A DNA stretch of 44,446 nt from Escherichia phage vB_EcoM_SHAK7704. The notes beneath the pieces were generated by a model. It was given only the letters and a program-made list of their open reading frames with translations. It was not told the origin of the DNA and searched no databases. This document shows, piece after piece, positions 1 to 44,446 of the stretch. A program made the position numbers and the translations under genes. How positions within the stretch are numbered: the first letter of the stretch is position 1; each line of letters begins with the position of its first letter. The stretch lies in the sequence record OR594181. One strand, 5' to 3'.

Positions 1-1896
1 ATGGCTAAGGCAAGAGAATCACAAGCGGAGGCCCTTGCCAGATGGGAGATACTACAGGAGTTACAGCAGACCTTTCCTTACACAGCGGAAGGTTTGCTTC
101 TCTTTGCAGACACAGTTATTCATAACTTAATTGCAGGCAACCCTCATCTGATTCGTATGCAGGCTGATATCTTGAAGTTCCTATTCTACGGACACAAGTA
201 TCGCCTCATCGAAGCGCCTCGTGGTATCGCTAAGACAACACTATCAGCAATCTATACAGTATTCCGTATCATTCATGAACCGCATAAGCGTATCATGGTT
301 GTATCCCAAAACGCCAAGCGAGCAGAGGAAATCGCAGGTTGGGTAGTTAAAATCTTCCGTGGCCTAGACTTTCTTGAGTTTATGCTACCGGACATCTACG
401 CAGGGGACCGTGCCTCAGTTAAGGCATTTGAGATTCATTACACCCTACGTGGCAGTGACAAGTCGCCTTCTGTGTCTTGTTACTCAATCGAAGCAGGTAT
501 GCAGGGTGCGCGTGCAGATATCATCCTAGCAGATGACGTTGAGTCAATGCAGAATGCTCGTACAGCGGCAGGACGTGCCTTGCTTGAGGAACTGACCAAG
601 GAGTTTGAATCTATTAACCAGTTTGGTGATATTATCTACCTTGGTACTCCTCAGAACGTAAACTCTATCTACAATAACCTACCTGCTCGTGGTTACTCTG
701 TTCGTATCTGGACTGCACGTTATCCCTCAGTGGAGCAGGAGCAATGCTATGGTGACTTCCTTGCACCTATGATTGTGCAGGATATGAAGGACAACCCAGC
801 ACTTCGCTCAGGGTATGGCTTGGATGGCAATAGTGGTGCCCCTTGTGCACCTGAAATGTATGATGATGATGTACTGATTGAGAAGGAAATCTCGCAGGGT
901 GCGGCTAAGTTCCAGCTTCAGTTCATGCTTAACACTCGCATGATGGATGCTGACCGCTATCCGCTACGCCTGAACAACCTCATCTTCACTTCATTCGGTA
1001 CAGAGGAAGTCCCTGTGATGCCTACGTGGAGCAATGATTCCATCAATATTATTGGCGATGCACCGAAGTATGGCAATAAGCCTACAGACTTCATGTATCG
1101 ACCTGTGGCTCGCCCGTATGAATGGGGCGCTGTCACTCGTAAGATTATGTATATTGACCCTGCTGGTGGCGGTAAGAATGGGGATGAAACGGGTGTGGCT
1201 ATCGTCTTCCTGCACGGCACATTCATTTACGTGTACCAGTGCTTCGGTGTGCCAGGCGGATATCGCGAATCATCCCTGAATCGCATTGTGCAGGCCGCAA
1301 AGCAGGCGGGTGTTAAAGAGGTATTCATTGAAAAGAACTTTGGTCATGGCGCATTTGAGGCCGTTATAAAGCCATACTTTGAACGAGAGTGGCCTGTGAC
1401 TCTGGAGGAAGATTACGCCACCGGACAGAAAGAGTTGCGTATCATTGAAACACTAGAGCCACTAATGGCGGCCCACAGGCTCATCTTCAACGCAGAGATG
1501 GTCAAGTCTGATTTTGAGTCGGTACAGCGCTATCCGCTTGAACTACGCATGTCATACAGCCTTTTCAATCAAATGTCGAACATCACGATTGAGAAGAACA
1601 GCCTACGACACGATGACCGCTTAGACGCTCTGTATGGTGCTATACGGCAATTAACTTCTCAGATAGACTATGACGAGGTTACACGGATTAATCGCCTCAG
1701 AGCGCAGGAGATGCGCGATTACATCCATGCTATGAACACACCTCACCTCCGTAGGGCAATGCTCTATGGAGATTATGGCACTGAGCGAAGAGTAACCAAC
1801 ACTTCCGTGGCTATGCAGCAAAGAGTATACGGTCAGAATTACAGGAGTAAATCGGCAAGCAGAAATACACTTTCTGCAAGGATTTCAAGGATTTAG
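1..1896 (+). CDS. Terminase large subunit (T7 gp19-like)
   Basis: 631 aa; motifs matching T7 gp19 as recalled (RGIAKT, DKSPSV, ADIILADDVE, IIYLGTPQ, LQFMLN, RYPLRL, HDDRLDAL). Confidence 0.9.
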   Translation: MAKARESQAEALARWEILQELQQTFPYTAEGLLLFADTVIHNLIAGNPHLIRMQADILKFLFYGHKYRLIEAPRGIAKTTLSAIYTVFRIIHEPHKRIMVVSQNAKRAEEIAGWVVKIFRGLDFLEFMLPDIYAGDRASVKAFEIHYTLRGSDKSPSVSCYSIEAGMQGARADIILADDVESMQNARTAAGRALLEELTKEFESINQFGDIIYLGTPQNVNSIYNNLPARGYSVRIWTARYPSVEQEQCYGDFLAPMIVQDMKDNPALRSGYGLDGNSGAPCAPEMYDDDVLIEKEISQGAAKFQLQFMLNTRMMDADRYPLRLNNLIFTSFGTEEVPVMPTWSNDSINIIGDAPKYGNKPTDFMYRPVARPYEWGAVTRKIMYIDPAGGGKNGDETGVAIVFLHGTFIYVYQCFGVPGGYRESSLNRIVQAAKQAGVKEVFIEKNFGHGAFEAVIKPYFEREWPVTLEEDYATGQKELRIIETLEPLMAAHRLIFNAEMVKSDFESVQRYPLELRMSYSLFNQMSNITIEKNSLRHDDRLDALYGAIRQLTSQIDYDEVTRINRLRAQEMRDYIHAMNTPHLRRAMLYGDYGTERRVTNTSVAMQQRVYGQNYRSKSASRNTLSARISRI

Positions 1897-2637: not shown

Positions 2638-3327
2638 ATGCTGGGAGTAACAGGACAACGCAATAAGAATGTAGCCACCAAAGTGGTGGCTGATTTAGCT
2701 ACTGCTGCTACTGTCGAGGAATTACGAAACCAACATAGCTCTATTAACCGTGCTGACCTTTCTGGTAAACAAGAAGGTTCCGCCGTTATTATTAAGAAAG
2801 AAGATGGGAATTATTCTATCTTTGTAGCAACAGGAAGCAAGCCGACTGATGTGTGGAAAGAGTTGTCTCCAACAATACCAGAGCAAGAGATGCCTGCTGA
2901 ATATATTGATATGATTGATGTTCAAATTCATCAAGATTCTGCAAGCAACTTACATATAGACTCTTCTCGCACTAGTTTAATACAAACACCAATGTGGGAT
3001 ACTGAAGGTGAGTTGTTATTCCGTAATACACTAAGTGCAACATGTTCTTGTACTATTCTTGTTGATGGTGCGTCTGGTGTTCGTCAGGATTTTACTTTTA
3101 AGATTAATGGACTTTTAGAGCAGGAAGAGCAGTATTATGATATTGACACACTTATGTGCTCTATTCACTCTGCAACAACAACTAATGGCCTTACCTTGTG
3201 TATGCCAGATGCTAAAAGTGCAAAGACTAATAAAGTGGTAGTTAAGATCGACACTATGCAGTCATTAGCTATGAGCTTTGATCTTAACTTCCTTGTAGAA
3301 TGGACGTCACCAACGAGGTTACTATAA
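2638..3327 (+). CDS. Hypothetical protein, paralog C (family domain plus ~140-aa C-terminal extension)
   Basis: 229 aa; N-terminal domain homologous to A and B; stop overlaps the endolysin start (TAATG). Confidence 0.6.
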   Translation: MLGVTGQRNKNVATKVVADLATAATVEELRNQHSSINRADLSGKQEGSAVIIKKEDGNYSIFVATGSKPTDVWKELSPTIPEQEMPAEYIDMIDVQIHQDSASNLHIDSSRTSLIQTPMWDTEGELLFRNTLSATCSCTILVDGASGVRQDFTFKINGLLEQEEQYYDIDTLMCSIHSATTTNGLTLCMPDAKSAKTNKVVVKIDTMQSLAMSFDLNFLVEWTSPTRLL

Positions 3328-3671
3328 TGCTAAATCAATACTTCAAGCGTAAAGAATTTGCTTGCCGTTGTGGGTGCGGTACATCCACTGTTGATGCTGA
3401 GTTACTACAGGTAGTAACAGATGTGCGTGAGCACTTTGGTACTCCTGTTGTTATCACTTCTGGTCATCGCTGCGCCAAGCACAATGCTAATGTAGGTGGA
3501 GCTAAGAACTCTATGCATCTTACTGGTAAGGCTGCTGACATTAAGGTACGAGGCATCTTACCTTCTGATGTACATAAGTACCTTACTGATAAGTACCAAG
3601 GCAAGTATGGTATTGGTAAATATACCTCCTTTACTCATATTGATGTACGTGACGGGTGTGCACGATGGTAG
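3327..3671 (+). CDS. Endolysin, zinc peptidase M15-like fold
   Basis: 114 aa from ATG 3327 (ORF track starts at 3300 but has no RBS); SGHRC...H...D...H motif; sits beside the spanins. Confidence 0.7.
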   Translation: MLNQYFKRKEFACRCGCGTSTVDAELLQVVTDVREHFGTPVVITSGHRCAKHNANVGGAKNSMHLTGKAADIKVRGILPSDVHKYLTDKYQGKYGIGKYTSFTHIDVRDGCARW

Positions 3672-4245: not shown

Positions 4246-4263
4246 ATTTACTGGACACTATAG
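4246..4263 (+). promoter_or_regulatory. Phage RNAP promoter ATTTACTGGACACTATAG
   Basis: Exact consensus 18-mer upstream of the tailspike genes. Confidence 0.7.
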
Positions 4264-4347
4264 AAGAGATAAGATAGTGCCGTTCTTTTGAGCGGCCTAT
4301 TACTAGCCAATCTTCATAGGGAGGATTGGGAAGTAATAGGAGAGTAT

Positions 4348-4750: not shown

Positions 4751-7186
4751 ATGATTCAAAGACTAGGTTCTTCATTAGTTAAATTCAAGAGTAAAATAGC
4801 AGGTGCAATCTGGCGTAACTTGGATGACAAGCTCACCGAGGTTGTATCGCTTAAAGATTTTGGAGCCAAAGGTGATGGTAAGACAAACGACCAAGATGCA
4901 GTAAATGCAGCGATGGCTTCAGGTAAGAGAATTGACGGTGCTGGTGCTACTTACAAAGTATCATCTTTACCTGATATGGAGCGATTCTATAACACCCGCT
5001 TCGTATGGGAACGTTTAGCAGGTCAACCTCTTTACTATGTGAGTAAAGGTTTTATCAATGGTGAACTATATAAAATCACGGATAACCCTTATTACAATGC
5101 TTGGCCTCAAGACAAAGCGTTTGTATATGAGAACGTGATATATGCACCTTACATGGGTAGTGACCGTCATGGTGTTAGTCGTCTGCATGTATCATGGGTT
5201 AAGTCTGGTGACGATGGTCAAACATGGTCTACTCCAGAGTGGTTAACTGATCTGCATCCAGATTACCCTACAGTGAACTATCATTGTATGAGTATGGGTG
5301 TATGTCGCAACCGTCTGTTTGCCATGATTGAAACACGTACTTTAGCCAAGAACGAACTAACCAATTGTGCATTGTGGGATCGTCCTATGTCTCGTAGTCT
5401 GCATCTTACTGGTGGTATCACTAAGGCTGCAAATCAGCGTTATGCAACAATCCATGTACCTGATCACGGATTATTCGTGGGCGATTTTGTTAGCTTCTCT
5501 AATTCTGCGGTAACAGGTGTAACTGGTGATATGAAAGTTGCAACAGTTATAGATAAGGACAACTTCACGGTTCTTACAGCCAATCAGCAGACCTCTGATT
5601 TGAACAATGCTGGAAAGAATTGGCACATGGGCACTTCCTTCCATAAGTCTCCATGGCGTAAGACAGATCTTGGCCTGATACCTCGTGTTACTGAAGTTCA
5701 TAGCTTTGCTACTATTGATAACAATGGCTTTGTTATGGGTTATCACCAAGGCGACGTAGCTCCACGCGAAGTTGGTCTTTTCTACTTCCCTGATGCTTTT
5801 AACAATCCATCTAATTATGTTCGTCGTCAGATACCATCTGAGTACGAACCGGATGCGGCAGAGCCATGCATCAAGTACTATGACGGTGTGTTATACCTTA
5901 TCACTCGTGGTACTCGTGGTGACAGGCTTGGAAGCTCTTTGCATCGCAGTAGAGATATAGGTCAAACTTGGGAGTCACTAAGATTTCCACATAATGTGCA
6001 TCATACTACTTTACCGTTTGCTAAGGTAGGAGATGATCTTATTATGTTTGGTTCAGAACGTGCAGAAAATGAATGGGAAGCAGGTGCACCTGATGATCGT
6101 TACAAGGCATCTTATCCCCGCACCTTCTATGCACGATTGAATGTAAACAAGTGGAGTGCAGATGACATTGAATGGGTTAACATCACAGACCAAATCTATC
6201 AGGGTGACATTGTTAACTCCAGTGTAGGTGTAGGTTCGGTGGTAGTTAAAGATAGTTACATTTACTATATCTTTGGTGGTGAAAACCATTTCAACCCAAT
6301 GACTTATGGTGACAACAAAGATAAAGACCCATTTATTGGACATGGACACCCTACTGATATATACTGCTATAAGATGCAGATTGCAAATGACAGTCGTGTA
6401 TCTCGTAAGTTTACATATGGTGCAACTCCTGGTCAGGCTATACCTACTTTCATGGGTACTGATGGTATTCGCACTATTCCTGCTCCACTTCACTTATCAG
6501 GAGAGGTAGTTGCCGCAGATATGACTGTCGAACACCTTACCTTGAAGGCAAGTACAAGTGCTAATATTCGCTCAGAGATGCTGATGGAAGGTGAATATGG
6601 GTTCATTGGTAAGACTATACCAACGGATAACCCAACCGCCCAACGTGTTATCATCTCTGGTGGAGAGGGTACAGCAGCAGATACCGGTGCGCAAATTACC
6701 TTACATGGAGCAGGTTCTAGCACTTCTAGACGCGCAGTATATAATGCCAATGAGCACTTGTTCCAAAGTGGAGCTATCATGCCATACAATGATAACGTGT
6801 ATCCTGCTGGCGGCCCTCGTAATAGATTCACTACTATCCATCTTACAAGTGACCCTATTATTACGTCTGATGCCACTCATAAGTATGGATCACAAGGTAT
6901 TGATGAGAGTGTACTAAAGGCATGGGGTAAGGTTAGCTTCAAGCAGTACAAGTTGATTGGTGAGATGTCTCGTGGTGTGCACCACACTCACTTTGGTGTA
7001 TTGGCACAAGACATTGTAGCTGCTTTTGCATCCGAAGGGTTAGATGCAATCGACTTCGGCATTGTCTCCTTCGAAGAAGGTCAGTTTGGTGTTAGATATA
7101 GTGAAATCTTAATCTTGGAGGCTGCTTATACTCGCTATCGTTTAGACAAGTTAGAGGAGATGTATGCCACTAATAAAAGCAGTTAA
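4751..7186 (+). CDS. Endosialidase tailspike (endo-N-acetylneuraminidase) with C-terminal intramolecular chaperone domain
   Basis: 811 aa; sequence recalled as near-identical to K1E/K1-5 endosialidase; C-terminal chaperone-domain motifs; strong AAAGGAGG RBS. Confidence 0.9.
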   Translation: MIQRLGSSLVKFKSKIAGAIWRNLDDKLTEVVSLKDFGAKGDGKTNDQDAVNAAMASGKRIDGAGATYKVSSLPDMERFYNTRFVWERLAGQPLYYVSKGFINGELYKITDNPYYNAWPQDKAFVYENVIYAPYMGSDRHGVSRLHVSWVKSGDDGQTWSTPEWLTDLHPDYPTVNYHCMSMGVCRNRLFAMIETRTLAKNELTNCALWDRPMSRSLHLTGGITKAANQRYATIHVPDHGLFVGDFVSFSNSAVTGVTGDMKVATVIDKDNFTVLTANQQTSDLNNAGKNWHMGTSFHKSPWRKTDLGLIPRVTEVHSFATIDNNGFVMGYHQGDVAPREVGLFYFPDAFNNPSNYVRRQIPSEYEPDAAEPCIKYYDGVLYLITRGTRGDRLGSSLHRSRDIGQTWESLRFPHNVHHTTLPFAKVGDDLIMFGSERAENEWEAGAPDDRYKASYPRTFYARLNVNKWSADDIEWVNITDQIYQGDIVNSSVGVGSVVVKDSYIYYIFGGENHFNPMTYGDNKDKDPFIGHGHPTDIYCYKMQIANDSRVSRKFTYGATPGQAIPTFMGTDGIRTIPAPLHLSGEVVAADMTVEHLTLKASTSANIRSEMLMEGEYGFIGKTIPTDNPTAQRVIISGGEGTAADTGAQITLHGAGSSTSRRAVYNANEHLFQSGAIMPYNDNVYPAGGPRNRFTTIHLTSDPIITSDATHKYGSQGIDESVLKAWGKVSFKQYKLIGEMSRGVHHTHFGVLAQDIVAAFASEGLDAIDFGIVSFEEGQFGVRYSEILILEAAYTRYRLDKLEEMYATNKSS

Positions 7187-7397
7187 GCAAGCGGCTGTAC
7201 GCCAGAACACAGAAGAACTTATTCAATCAGGACGTGACCATAAGCAGGCTTATGCCATTGCTAAGGATGTACAACGTCGTGCCGGATTTCCCCCATATGG
7301 GGGCCGCGCTGCGGTTGGCTTGGGAATTGGGCTAGGCTGGGCCGTCTTCGACGGGTGGCCTAGAGCTTGCCGAGGTCTGCTCTTAGTGGCTGCACAA

Positions 7398-7531
7398 GGA
7401 GAACGCCTAGGAAGCGCTAGGGCACGCCTTAGTATTGGACAAGGTGATTGCCTTAGTGCAACCGCTTAGGGCTTACACAGGCCGTTTTAGGGCCATTCCT
7501 GAGCGTTTGACAAGGTGGGCGTGGGTGGGCT
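7398..7531 (+). repeat. Direct repeat copy 1 (134 bp), putative right terminal repeat
   Basis: Identical base-for-base to 7532-7665 in direct tandem. Confidence 0.7.
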
Positions 7532-7665
7532 GGAGAACGCCTAGGAAGCGCTAGGGCACGCCTTAGTATTGGACAAGGTGATTGCCTTAGTGCAACCGCT
7601 TAGGGCTTACACAGGCCGTTTTAGGGCCATTCCTGAGCGTTTGACAAGGTGGGCGTGGGTGGGCT
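7532..7665 (+). repeat. Direct repeat copy 2 (134 bp), putative left terminal repeat
   Basis: Identical to 7398-7531; followed at 7666 by ATCTGTT. Confidence 0.7.
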
Positions 7666-7716
7666 ATCTGTTCGTTTCGTTCACTCCGCTTGCGCTCCGT
7701 TCACTCGCTCACGTGT

Positions 7717-7845
7717 ACCTTAGGTTATTCCTTGATGGATGGCTTAGGTTAGCCTTAGTGGGCTGCCTTAGTTAAAGCCTTAGTGCTTAGCTTAGTATCA
7801 ACTTAGTAGTGTACCTTAGTAAGTCTTAGTGTCTTCTCTTAGTGA
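7717..7845 (+). repeat. Array of about 10 short CTTAGT-type repeats next to the terminal repeat
   Basis: ccttagg, gcttagg, ccttagt, gcttagt, acttagt, tcttagt recur every 8-15 bp. Confidence 0.6.
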
Positions 7846-8027
7846 TTGCATAGCTAAAGCTATAAGATGCAATTAGGTCGCGGTCGGTAGACCGCTAAGA
7901 GTAGGTAATAGTAATAAGATGCAGTAGGAGGAACACCAGAAACCTAGCCAACCTAGCCTATCCTAGCTCTGTATCTATTGCTTTCCTTAGTCTCACATGT
8001 TAGACAACCTATGTTTATCTTAGTAGT

Positions 8028-8043
8028 TGTGACATGTATCACA
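8028..8043 (+). promoter_or_regulatory. CRP-like site TGTGA-N6-TCACA
   Basis: tgtgacatgtatcaca matches both CRP half-sites; centred about 72 bp upstream of the predicted early start site. Confidence 0.3.
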
Positions 8044-8072
8044 TAAATAATCTATCTTAGTGAAACTTAGTG

Positions 8073-8101
8073 TTGACATAGGCAATCAACTGGTATACAT
8101 T
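8073..8101 (+). promoter_or_regulatory. Host sigma70-type early promoter
   Basis: TTGACA at 8073-8078, 17-bp spacer, TACATT at 8096-8101; about 400 bp inside the left genome end. Confidence 0.5.
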
Positions 8102-8251
8102 AGCAATCACTGAGACGGACCTAGCAAGCTGTCTCAGGTTATAAGCAGGAGAATTGATGCGTAAGCCATAGCTAGTGGATGTAGTCGCATGAAGGCTTGA
8201 GTAAGGGGCCGCTTAATACCTTCTTCCTCTGGAGACAACGCTTATAACACT

Positions 8252-8264
8252 GCTCTTTAACAAT
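8252..8264 (+). promoter_or_regulatory. Conserved early intergenic 13-mer GCTCTTTAACAAT (copy 1), candidate RNase III site
   Basis: One of five near-identical copies, each 40-70 nt upstream of an early gene start and flanked by imperfect dyads. Confidence 0.4.
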
Positions 8265-8322
8265 CTGCTTAGTGTAACCTATGTATGCCGTGGTTAATTA
8301 CTTATTGAATGAAGGATTAACT

Positions 8323-8550
8323 ATGAAAGTACAAGTAAAAGCGTACAACATGCCAGTTGATGAGATTCAGCACTTCCTCGATAAAGGTTATGACTTATGT
8401 AAGATGCGCACACCAGATAACTATGACTACTCACCTAAATATCTGCATTATATTGATCTTAAGATGGGTAAGAAGTTAGTTATTACAGGTACTGCATATA
8501 ACCGCATTATCAAAGTTCTTAAAGAGGGTGCTAATCATGACATTAAATAA
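8323..8550 (+). CDS. Early hypothetical protein
   Basis: ATG 8323 with GAAGGA RBS (track ORF starts at 8281 without RBS). Confidence 0.5.
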   Translation: MKVQVKAYNMPVDEIQHFLDKGYDLCKMRTPDNYDYSPKYLHYIDLKMGKKLVITGTAYNRIIKVLKEGANHDIK

Positions 8551-8716
8551 CCGTGAACTGTCCGTTCTCTTCACTCTGTTGTGCTACATGATTCGTAACA
8601 ACGAATTACTTACAGATGATGAGTTAGCCTTGTATCACCGCTTTCTTAACGAAGGTTGGACCGATACGGTTAATCAATACCGTAACATGATAGATGAGTT
8701 GAGGGAGGGTAGATAA
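8537..8716 (+). CDS. Early hypothetical protein
   Basis: ATG 8537 after GAGGG RBS; stop overlaps the next start. Confidence 0.45.
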   Translation: MTLNNRELSVLFTLLCYMIRNNELLTDDELALYHRFLNEGWTDTVNQYRNMIDELREGR

Positions 8717-11650: not shown

Positions 11651-14278
11651 ATGCAAGACCTACACGCTATTCAACTTCAACTTGAAGAAGAAATGTTTAA
11701 CGGCGGTATCCGTCGCTTTGAAGCGGACCAACAACGCCAGATTGCATCCGGTAATGAATCAGACACGGCATGGAATCGCCGTTTATTGTCCGAGTTAATC
11801 GCGCCAATGGCTGAAGGTATTCAGGCATACAAGGAAGAGTATGAAGGTAAAAGAGGCCGTGCACCGCGTGCATTAGCTTTCATTAACTGCGTAGAAAACG
11901 AAGTGGCAGCATATATCACGATGAAAATCGTTATGGATATGCTGAATACAGACGTTACCTTACAAGCAATCGCTATGAATGTAGCGGACCGCATCGAAGA
12001 CCAAGTACGTTTTAGCAAGCTGGAAGGTCACGCAGCTAAGTACTTTGAGAAAGTGAAGAAGTCGCTTAAGGCTAGCAAGACTAAATCTTATCGTCATGCG
12101 CACAACGTAGCGGTAGTAGCTGAGAAATCTGTTGCTGACCGTGACGCGGATTTCTCCCGTTGGGAGGCATGGCCTAAAGATACCTTGCTACAAATCGGTA
12201 TAACCTTGCTAGAAATACTGGAAAATAGTGTATTCTTCAATGGTCAGCCTGTCTTTCTTCGCACCTTGCGCACTAATGGTGGCAAGCATGGCGTTTACTA
12301 CTTACAGACCAGTGAACACGTAGGGGAATGGATTACAGCATTTAAAGAACATGTAGCGCAACTTAGCCCGGCTTATGCACCTTGCGTTATACCTCCGCGT
12401 CCGTGGGTTTCTCCTTTTAATGGCGGTTTTCACACTGAGAAGGTAGCAAGTCGTGTGCGTCTTGTTAAAGGCAGCCGTGAACACGTCCGCAAGCTGACCA
12501 AAAAGCAAATGCCAGCGGTTTACAAGGCTGTTAACGCTTTGCAGGCGACTAAATGGCAGGTTAACAAGGAAGTTTTACAGGTTGTTGAGGACGTAATACG
12601 GCTTGATTTAGGCTATGGCGTACCTTCCTTCAAACCACTCATCGACCGCGAGAACAAGCCAGCTAATCCGGTGCCGTTAGAGTTCCAGCACCTGCGAGGC
12701 CGTGAACTGAAAGAAATGTTAACACCGGAACAATGGCAAGCCTTCATCAACTGGAAAGGTGAATGCACCAAGCTGTATACCGCTGAGACTAAGCGCGGCA
12801 GCAAATCGGCGGCGACCGTCCGCATGGTAGGGCAGGCCCGTAAATACAGCCGATTTGACGCAATATACTTCGTGTATGCTCTGGACAGCCGCAGCCGCGT
12901 CTACGCGCAATCTAGCACGCTCTCTCCACAATCAAACGACTTAGGCAAGGCATTGCTCCGTTTTACCGAAGGGCAGCGTCTTGATAGCGCTGAGGCGCTT
13001 AAGTGGTTTTTGGTGAACGGGGCTAATAACTGGGGTTGGGATAAGAAAACTTTTGACGTGCGCACCGCTAACGTGCTGGATAGTGAATTTCAAGACATGT
13101 GCCGCGACATTGCAGCGGATCCGCTGACCTTCACTCAATGGGTAAATGCCGACTCCCCTTACGGCTTCCTTGCATGGTGCTTTGAATATGCGCGTTATCT
13201 GGATGCACTGGATGAAGGCACGCAAGACCAATTCATGACGCACCTCCCAGTCCATCAAGATGGTAGTTGTTCTGGTATCCAGCACTACAGTGCTATGCTA
13301 CGCGATGCAGTAGGTGCGAAAGCGGTAAACCTTAAGCCCTCTGACTCACCTCAAGATATTTATGGTGCCGTTGCGCAGGTAGTAATTCAGAAGAATTATG
13401 CATACATGAATGCAGAGGATGCGGAAACCTTCACTTCTGGCAGCGTGACTTTAACAGGTGCAGAACTTCGTAGCATGGCTAGTGCGTGGGATATGATAGG
13501 AATCACTCGCGGCCTGACCAAAAAGCCTGTAATGACACTACCTTATGGCAGCACACGTCTAACCTGCCGTGAATCAGTGATTGATTATATCGTTGATTTG
13601 GAAGAAAAAGAGGCCCAACGGGCTATTGCGGAAGGGCGTACCGCCAATCCTGTACATCCTTTTGATAATGACCGCAAAGACAGCCTGACACCTAGCGCAG
13701 CTTATAACTATATGACAGCTTTAATCTGGCCTTCTATTTCGGAAGTGGTTAAAGCTCCTATAGTGGCAATGAAAATGATTCGTCAGCTTGCACGTTTCGC
13801 AGCTAAAAGAAACGAAGGCTTAGAATATCCCTTACCAACTGGCTTCATCTTGCAACAAAAGATAATGGCTACCGATATGCTCCGCGTATCCACTTGCTTG
13901 ATGGGTGAAATCAAGATGAGTCTCCAGATTGAAACAGATGTAGTTGATGAAACGGCAATGATGGGTGCGGCTGCCCCTAACTTCGTCCATGGTCACGATG
14001 CTAGCCACCTGATTCTGACTGTATGTGACCTAGTGGATAAAGGTATTACATCCATTGCAGTCATCCATGATTCTTTCGGTACTCATGCAGGACGTACCGC
14101 AGACCTGCGGGATAGCTTAAGGGAAGAAATGGTTAAGATGTATCAAAACCATAATGCCCTGCAAAACCTGCTAGATGTGCACGAAGAGCGTTGGTTAGTA
14201 GACACCGGAATCCAAGTACCAGAGCAAGGAGAGTTTGACCTTAACGAAATCTTAGTTTCAGACTATTGTTTCGCATAA
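11651..14278 (+). CDS. Single-subunit DNA-dependent RNA polymerase (T7 gene 1-like)
   Basis: 875 aa; C-terminus ...DYCFA like T7 RNAP ...FAFA; preceded by early genes. Confidence 0.95.
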
Positions 14279-14369: not shown

Positions 14370-14387
14370 ATTTACCGGACACTATAG
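14370..14387 (+). promoter_or_regulatory. Phage RNAP promoter ATTTACCGGACACTATAG
   Basis: Consensus with one substitution (C at position 7). Confidence 0.65.
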
Positions 14388-43969: not shown

Positions 43970-44164
43970 ATGATTAACTCCGAACTGGTAGATAGTGGTG
44001 TGAAGCTTGCGCCACCTGCATTAGTCTCAGGTGGGTACTTCCTCGGTATCAGTTGGGATAATTGGGTGTTAATAGCAACATTCATTTATACCGTGTTGCA
44101 AATTGGAGACTGGTTTTATACCAAGATTAAACTATGGAGGAAGAATCGTGAGCGTCCACAATAA
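43970..44164 (+). CDS. Holin (T7 gp17.5-like, class II)
   Basis: 64 aa; WDNWVLIATFIYTVLQIG resembles T7 gp17.5 LNEWFYVAAIAYTVVQIG as recalled; AAGGAGG RBS. Confidence 0.75.
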   Translation: MINSELVDSGVKLAPPALVSGGYFLGISWDNWVLIATFIYTVLQIGDWFYTKIKLWRKNRERPQ

Positions 44165-44446
44165 ACATGCAGCTACAGAAGATGAGGTTGGCATCCTGCA
44201 TGGTGCTATTACCAAAATCTTTAATAAGAAAGCACAGGCAATACTGGACACTATAGAAGAAGACCCAGATGCAGCACTGCATTTAGTCTCTGGTAAAGAT
44301 ATTGGAGCTATGTGTAAGTGGGTTCTTGATAATGGTATTACCGCTACACCTGCTGCACAGCAGGAGGAGTCCAAGCTATCTAAGCGCCTCAAGGCTATCC
44401 GAGAGGCATCAAGTGGCAAGATTATTCAATTCACTAAGGAGGATTG
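44148..44446 (+). CDS. Terminase small subunit (3' end wraps to position 1)
   Basis: GTG 44148 with GGAGG 7 nt upstream; ORF runs to the window end; last two bases tg plus first base a make a TGA stop overlapping the terminase ATG. Confidence 0.65.
   Translation, partial: MSVHNKHAATEDEVGILHGAITKIFNKKAQAILDTIEEDPDAALHLVSGKDIGAMCKWVLDNGITATPAAQQEESKLSKRLKAIREASSGKIIQFTKED
44259..44276 (+). promoter_or_regulatory. Phage RNAP promoter variant CAATACTGGACACTATAG, intragenic
   Basis: Conserved -12 to +1 region; encodes ...LDTIEE... of the small terminase. Confidence 0.5.

Follow-up and report, generated by a model that had tools for sequence, protein, structure and literature searches.

The DNA analysed here, called the window below, is the whole 44,446-nucleotide sequence record OR594181 of Escherichia phage vB_EcoM_SHAK7704, read on one strand, 5' to 3'. 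The segment 7666-7845 carries the heptamer ATCTGTT, which directly follows a tandem repeat, and a cluster of short CTTAGT-type repeats. The features of the window that bear on this segment are listed below.

1..1896, plus strand: terminase large subunit, T7-type (Pfam PF22530), the ATG being record position 1
3300-3671: lysin (Peptidase_M15_3)
4246..4268, plus strand: last phage-type promoter before the junction (ATTTACTGGACACTATAGAAGAG)
4751-7186: endosialidase tailspike
7281..7531, plus strand: homologue of the direct terminal repeat (DTR) of relatives, corresponding approximately to positions 18-267 of the K1E-type DTR, with the left terminus TCTCGCCCTCGCCCTC missing
7398-7531 and 7532-7665, plus strand: exact tandem duplication (2 x 134 bp) of the right half of the DTR homologue
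7661..7679, plus strand: conserved block GGGCTATCTGTTCGTTTCG, which spans the boundary between the DTR and the unique DNA on the left of the genome
7666..7672, plus strand (the non-template strand when phage transcription runs rightwards): heptamer ATCTGTT, the same sequence as the class II signal of T7
7680..7718, plus strand: C/T-rich spacer with short repeats of the CACTC/CGCT type, varying in length among relatives
7719..7843, plus strand: ten CTTAG[T/G] units in a phased array, repeating every 10-13 bp apart from one 24-bp gap
7986, 8019, 8056, 8066 and 8268, plus strand: dispersed CTTAGT copies, which reach and flank the early host-type promoter
8073..8101, plus strand: sigma-70-like early promoter, TTGACA-17-TACATT, by consensus match only (10/12)
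11651..14278, plus strand: single-subunit phage RNA polymerase (RNAP; Pfam RNA_pol and RPOL_N)
44154..44446, plus strand: terminase small subunit (phrog_891, E=4.7e-25), whose stop codon wraps onto base 1

Positions 7000-8500 match 105 phage records at 88-95% identity, most of them Escherichia Vectrevirus (K1E, K1-5, PhiNW-E1), while the structural-gene half is 97.5% identical to K1E-type phages. Compared with K1E-type Vectrevirus genomes, the window shows 94-97.5% identity, and the source genome is a K1E-type Vectrevirus (Autographiviridae, Molineuxvirinae; SP6 group). As the record opens at the terminase ATG and the stop codon of the small terminase wraps around, it represents a complete genome that was handled as a circle and re-oriented; therefore, the physical genome ends lie inside the window, near 7.3-7.7 kb.

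All large ORFs of the window are on the plus strand, and so are the eleven phage promoters of the form ATTTACTGGACACTATAGAAG. The last promoter before the junction, at 4246..4268, is the likely source of transcripts that cross the endosialidase gene into the repeat, and no terminator-like site was found on the plus strand between 6800 and 7666. With all promoters directed rightwards and no terminator before the heptamer, read-through transcripts on a concatemer would meet ATCTGTT on the non-template strand. The candidate early promoter at 8073..8101 marks the inner limit of the non-coding end region, and the first phage promoter is at 14380. Two further repeated elements were observed. Four copies of GCTCTTTAACAAT, which may be a processing or regulatory site, are found on the plus strand of the early region (8252, 9011, 9169 and 9753), the first of them just upstream of the first early ORF. 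The perfect palindrome TGTCTCACATGTGAGAC also occurs four times (14351, 14542, 17128 and 39642), with a half-site at 7990; these palindromes may be hairpin terminators or operator-like sites.

The initial annotation had placed ATCTGTT straight after the second repeat copy, and this was confirmed: the heptamer at 7666-7672 abuts the 134-bp copy at 7532-7665. It had also suggested counting the heptamer genome-wide, and had stated that many random occurrences together with lack of conservation of the array in related phages would speak against its reading. The count is at the chance level (seven copies found, 7.94 expected), and genome-wide enrichment was thus rejected as evidence; both the heptamer and the array, on the other hand, are strongly conserved in relatives (see below), so that the earlier interpretation stands despite the count. 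Since the count is uninformative, the argument rests on position, conservation and strand bias. By an arithmetic estimate, a copy would fall by chance at the repeat boundary (+/-1 nt) and on the correct strand with a probability of about 2e-4.

The strand bias concerns copies away from the junction. In the window, one such copy is in the sense orientation, with 3.6 expected under a first-order Markov model, and five are antisense, with 4.3 expected. The same model gives 3.05 expected and none found for the sense strand of SP6 (antisense: one found, 4.0 expected), and 2.7 expected and none found for that of T7 (antisense: four found, 3.3 expected). Pooling the window, SP6 and T7 yields one sense copy against approximately 9.4 expected, with Poisson P ~1e-3, a value that treats the three genomes as independent, which is only partly true. 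In 166 kb of IMG/VR relatives, the non-boundary copies comprise one sense and eight antisense; here as above, the sense-strand counts are small and the relatives are non-independent samples. The sole extra sense copy in the window (12127-12133) is inside the RNAP gene and upstream of the promoter at 14380, and hence the DNA around it is expected to be transcribed by the host enzyme. In one relative (L018), a sense copy is found at a comparable distance from the boundary (+4013). The strand bias suggests that, both in the SP6 group and in T7, the heptamer is selected against in all DNA transcribed by the phage polymerase, and this avoidance on the sense strand argues that polymerases of the SP6 type read the signal too.

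We then compared the end architecture with that of SP6 and K1-5, as the initial annotation had proposed, and found ATCTGTT at the repeat boundary, followed by the same CTTAGT array, in SP6, K1-5 and K1E. In relatives whose ends are defined, the DTR measures 174-288 bp and runs from TCTC(G/T)C... to ...GGGCTA. It closes on the A of ATCTGTT in SP6 (174 bp), K1-5 (234 bp), K1E (288 bp), mutPK1A2 (286 bp) and Mt1B1_P10 (267 bp), the DTRs of the latter three having been annotated or computed. In T7 (160 bp) and T3 (231 bp), the DTR ends with ...CCCT and ATCTGTT begins at the next base; the T7 copy at 161-167, straight after the 160-bp repeat, agrees with the earlier description of the heptamer as a T7 junction signal. 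The difference of one nucleotide in register between the SP6 group and T7/T3 could be real or could reflect a non-templated A from run-off end sequencing, an effect that was explicitly discounted in one paper (PMC4925675). The heptamer of the window was assigned to the boundary by homology to these relatives, as the ends of the window phage itself are not defined.

Conservation was measured in 20 IMG/VR contigs, selected by a hairpin about 210 bp downstream (GGTCGCGGTCGGNAGACCGCT), and in reference phages; the use of the hairpin as an unrelated marker avoids circularity in the choice of loci. Of the loci, 28 extend far enough upstream, and each of these has a single ATCTGTT, located 185-272 bp upstream of the hairpin, and six to nine CTTAGT on the strand of the heptamer, with none on the other strand. 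This bears out the expectation that the heptamer and the array are conserved in related phages. Across 27 distinct aligned sequences, no heptamer column varies (100% invariant), and GGCTATCTGTT is likewise invariant in these relatives. The mean column identity is 80% in the 20 bp upstream, 87% in the 7 bp following the heptamer and 65% in the 7680-7718 spacer. Outside the SP6 group, T7 and T3, the boundary signal decays to ATCTGTA in K1F and to ATCTATC in Era103, and nothing similar is found in phiKMV. Given the first two variants, conservation extends most widely for CT/ATCT, and a cleavage site would account for this no less well than a pause site.

The array was described initially as about ten CTTAGT-type repeats. 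It indeed consists of eight CTTAGT units, starting at 7754, 7767, 7779, 7791, 7802, 7815, 7825 and 7838 on the plus strand, and two CTTAGG units on the same strand, at 7719 and 7743, with successive spacings of 24, 11, 13, 12, 12, 11, 13, 10 and 13 bp. The motif was also said to occur within the repeat unit, and each 134-bp unit contains two CTTAGT and one CTTAGG. CTTAGT is frequent in the whole window (52 copies against 28.5 expected; 0 of 100 shuffles reached 52), and the eight copies on one strand of 180 nt, with 0.058 expected, correspond to P ~3e-15. Between 7382 and 8273 there are 18 copies on the plus strand and none on the minus strand. Columns of the CTTAG[T/G] motif are 95% conserved versus 75% for the spacers (permutation p<1e-4), and the array is common to the SP6 and K1E types although the spacers have diverged. 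The positions of the dispersed copies (7986-8273) are occupied likewise in SP6 and K1-5. CTTAGT also occurs within the DTR, and relatives carry it in the unique DNA left of their right-hand DTR as well; being inside the repeat and on both its flanks, the motif brackets the junction.

Two other explanations of the array were rejected. It is not coding, as no ORF crosses 7719..7843 on either strand, and CTTAGT is not a part of the phage promoter, which has the form ATTTACTGGACACTATAGAAG and does not occur within 7666-8300. An Rfam scan of 7000-8600 matched no family.

Several observations were made on the DNA around the array. In one IMG/VR contig (L023), the spacer between the heptamer and the array has an expanded CTCACTCACTGCTC repeat, with approximately three extra copies, which indicates that this spacer is prone to slippage and that its length is unconstrained. 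Right after the array, at 7836-7901, there is a two-hairpin element with an RNA MFE of -24.5 kcal/mol (z = -3.4). The palindrome ATAGCTAAAGCTAT (7850-7863) is swapped for ACATGCAAGCATGT in nine of 23 relatives, the three pairs altered on both sides having probably changed as one event. The GC hairpin GCGGTC-GGTA-GACCGC at 7880-7895 is invariant, and the last CTTAGT of the array is able to pair with CTAAGAG at 7896-7901. About 2.8 copies of a tandem AACCTAGCC-type repeat, lying at 7941-7967 between these hairpins and the early promoter, are conserved in SP6, K1-5 and K1E.

Another account of the locus would be that the heptamer is there by chance and that slippage generated the short repeats, which non-coding end DNA tolerates as neutral. 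ATCTGTT is as frequent genome-wide as expected, and repeats clearly tend to expand in the spacer that separates heptamer and array, as in L023. However, the heptamer is invariant in 27 distinct relatives and stands at the same boundary in T7 and T3, the CTTAGT columns are significantly better conserved than the spacers, and the array has been preserved between the SP6 and K1E types in spite of the diverged spacers. We regard this account as hardly credible, and for practical purposes it is refuted by the conservation data.

The two 134-bp copies in front of the heptamer had been taken for the terminal repeats. This was not borne out, as the unit covers no more than the right half of the relatives' DTR, and the reading was rejected: the left terminus and the element upstream of it are absent, and the length falls short of 174-288 bp. 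The DTR homologue was aligned with five close relatives, including PhiNW-E1, UTI89UKE2, K1E and vB_EcoP_C. All relatives retrieved across that region contain TCTCGCCCTCGCC, the motif of the DTR left terminus, which is absent from the whole window. The same is true of the element AAATTTTGATRTAGGCGTGTGT, which is located upstream of the left terminus in 16 of the 16 relatives with that region, including SP6 and K1-5, and is absent from the whole window even when three mismatches are allowed. Both were lost in a deletion specific to the window (junction at 7280-7283), which removed the stretch between ...CAACGTCGT and GCCGGATTT, about 225-330 bp long in relatives and containing there the left terminus TCTCGCCCTCGCCCTC with AAATTTTGATRTAGGCGTGTGT just upstream. 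The deletion joins a small gene-48-like ORF (7164-) to approximately position 18 of the DTR, and the ORF 7164-7469 consequently reads into the repeat as an apparent fusion.

Neither of the two private junctions, that of the deletion and that of the duplication (GGGCT/GGAGAAC), has a match in 50,697 phage records, IMG/VR or JGI metagenomes. An assembly artefact is a likelier cause of both than a real rearrangement. The duplication would be accounted for by a contig that retained parts of both DTR copies before re-circularisation; the deletion would not. We consider it very improbable that the rearrangement is real, in which case the window would represent a viable K1E-like phage that lacks the canonical left-end cleavage site together with the conserved element upstream of it and has re-specified its terminal repeat as the 134-bp unit, with GGAGAAC... 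as the left end and ...GGGCT as the right end. If this were true, GGGCT/ATCTGTT and the CTTAGT array would be sufficient to direct end formation, and the left cut would be placed by a rule other than sequence recognition. With respect to the left end, we also observed an A-rich motif, AAAA[AT]TnTGA, in the DNA just left of the right-hand DTR; it precedes the left-end cut site by 11-20 nt in T7, T3, K1F, SP6, K1-5 and K1E. It looks like a cis element for left-end formation shared across subfamilies, and it is the element missing from the window.

Class II signals share ATCTGTT on the non-template strand and act 6-8 nt downstream of it (bioRxiv 10.1101/2021.01.11.426313; PMC11617373). According to these sources, any base substitution abolishes class II function in T7 (bioRxiv 10.1101/2021.01.11.426313, citing earlier literature; PMC11617373). 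T7 and Syn5 RNAPs respond to ATCTGTT and VSW-3 RNAP ignores it, and the R173C mutant of T7 RNAP is insensitive to class II signals (PMC9624206). Residues K172/R173 of T7 RNAP align to A/S in the RNAP of the window, in a lysine-rich stretch of a poorly conserved region. The insensitivity of VSW-3 RNAP and these residues, together with the T7-lysozyme-type amidase that was looked for and not found (see below), may weigh against a pause in this phage. T7 RNAP mutants blind to class II signals are reportedly defective in concatemer processing, and the pause in T7, which is enhanced by T7 lysozyme, has been proposed to trigger maturation and packaging. In the literature searchable here, no experiment on an SP6-group polymerase at ATCTGTT was found.

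From the observed sequence, position, orientation, conservation and strand bias of these elements, we infer that 7666-7845 is fairly probably the SP6-group counterpart of the T7 concatemer junction, with its class II site and short-repeat array. The segment would be the first unique DNA to the right of the DTR, and in replicating concatemers it would form the right edge of the junction. The single-subunit RNAP would produce late transcripts that run rightwards from the last genes through the repeat and meet ATCTGTT on the non-template strand exactly at the boundary of repeat and unique DNA. The RNAP encoded at 11651..14278 is the presumed reader of the heptamer, and by analogy with T7 it may pause or be released about 7 nt past the heptamer, near 7679-7681. 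Recognition of the signal would be linked to concatemer processing and packaging, again as in T7. The CTTAGT array could then be the group-specific equivalent of the CCTAAAG 'SRL' array of T7. An array that is phased, strand-specific and conserved in its motif, and that lies beside the terminase cut site, looks like a protein-loading platform; most plausibly it would serve as a cis-acting loading or architectural platform for end processing, with the small terminase (44154..44446) as an obvious candidate binder.

Part of the evidence may also be read differently. The conserved (A)TCTGTT block could primarily be a recognition or nicking site of the terminase that sets the right repeat boundary, with the class II identity secondary or overlapping; this is a tentative possibility that we find rather unlikely. 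TCT follows both repeat boundaries: TCTC opens the left ends of T7, T3, K1F, SP6 and K1E, and (A)TCTG opens the unique DNA that follows the repeat. In T7 both boundaries read CTA/TCT (gtgacta/TCTCACAG and ccctA/TCTGTTACAG), and the variants of K1F and Era103 mentioned above keep ATCT and lose the full heptamer. A pure cleavage site, however, leaves unexplained the scarcity of ATCTGTT on the sense strand only in the window, SP6 and T7, and all seven bases are invariant in the SP6 group and identical to those of T7 and T3 despite little other nucleotide similarity. Moreover, nicking and pausing are not mutually exclusive and can coexist at one site.

For the array alone, a role in genome entry or early expression without any role in packaging is a serious alternative, which we think unlikely. 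CTTAGT would then represent, for example, sites for host or early phage proteins or an architectural element upstream of the early host promoters. The array is on the leading genome end and upstream of the sigma-70-like promoter at 8073-8101, the copies at 8056 and 8066 abut the -35 element of this promoter, and further copies run to 8268, just before the first early gene; the T7 motif likewise recurs near promoter A1. On the other hand, the motif is found in the DTR and to the left of the right-hand DTR in relatives, as expected for a junction element, and we recognised no known host-factor consensus in CTTAGT, judging by its sequence alone.

The layout is real and conserved, and it is not new: it is sequence-identical in the K1E, K1-5 and SP6 genomes, which have been public for two decades. 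The SP6-group instance has probably been described in print already; the open-access papers on SP6-like phages that we found do not discuss either element. The junction layout holds no surprise for a T7 specialist. Its recognition nevertheless pinpoints where the physical end of the genome and the concatemer junction lie in a record deposited as a re-oriented circle, which aids annotation and engineering of K1-specific therapeutic phages. It also shows that the layout of the T7 junction, in which ATCTGTT and a phased array of short repeats follow the repeat, occurs in the SP6 group with another array motif, and thereby provides an independent motif for testing the role of short-repeat arrays.

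Among known systems, the clusters of short repeats that flank terminase cleavage sites, namely the pac hexamers of P1 and the cosB R sites of lambda, can be compared with the putative CTTAGT sites in the mode of action of small-terminase motifs only, there being no sequence relationship. T7-type packaging additionally requires duplication of the terminal repeat.

The class II junction signal of T7 and T3 resembles that of the window in having the identical ATCTGTT on the same strand relative to phage transcription, as the first bases after the left-end terminal repeat, with a register offset of at most 1 nt. Both in the window and in T7, the junction heptamer is the only sense copy in the DNA transcribed by the phage RNAP. 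Unlike T7, the window phage belongs to a different subfamily and its RNAP is just 32% identical to T7 RNAP; the heptamer is followed by CGTTTCG in the window and by ACAGTCT in T7; and the end region of the window has no phage promoter equivalent to phiOL of T7. A T7-lysozyme-type amidase was not detected among the 20 ORFs scanned in the window, and any pause at the junction of this phage would proceed without a detectable lysozyme partner of the T7 style.

The initial annotation had pointed to analogous short repeats beside the terminal repeats of T7, and a CCTAAAG array with a period of approximately 13 bp does follow the T7 heptamer. Like the SRL and SRR arrays of T7, the array of the window contains a motif of 6-7 nt about ten times on one strand, at a period of 12-13 bp. 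As in SRL, it begins a few tens of base pairs after the heptamer, is placed between the terminal repeat and the early promoters (at 8073-8101 in the window), and has extra motif copies inside the repeat and near the early promoters. The motif differs, however (CTTAGT versus CCTAAAG), which makes the array an analogue and not a member of the same sequence family; the spacer between the heptamer and the array is 39 bp and variable, versus about 8 bp in T7; and the right-end counterpart of the array seen in relatives is deleted from the window. In T3, K1F, Era103 and phiKMV, the short motif that is most frequent after the repeat differs from phage to phage.

The closest counterparts are the ends of SP6, K1-5 and K1E. 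They are direct orthologues that share with the window the GGGCTATCTGTTC block, the CTTAGT array and the downstream hairpins. The window differs from them in its private 134-bp duplication and in the loss of the DTR left terminus and of the conserved AAATTTTGATRTAGGCGTGTGT.
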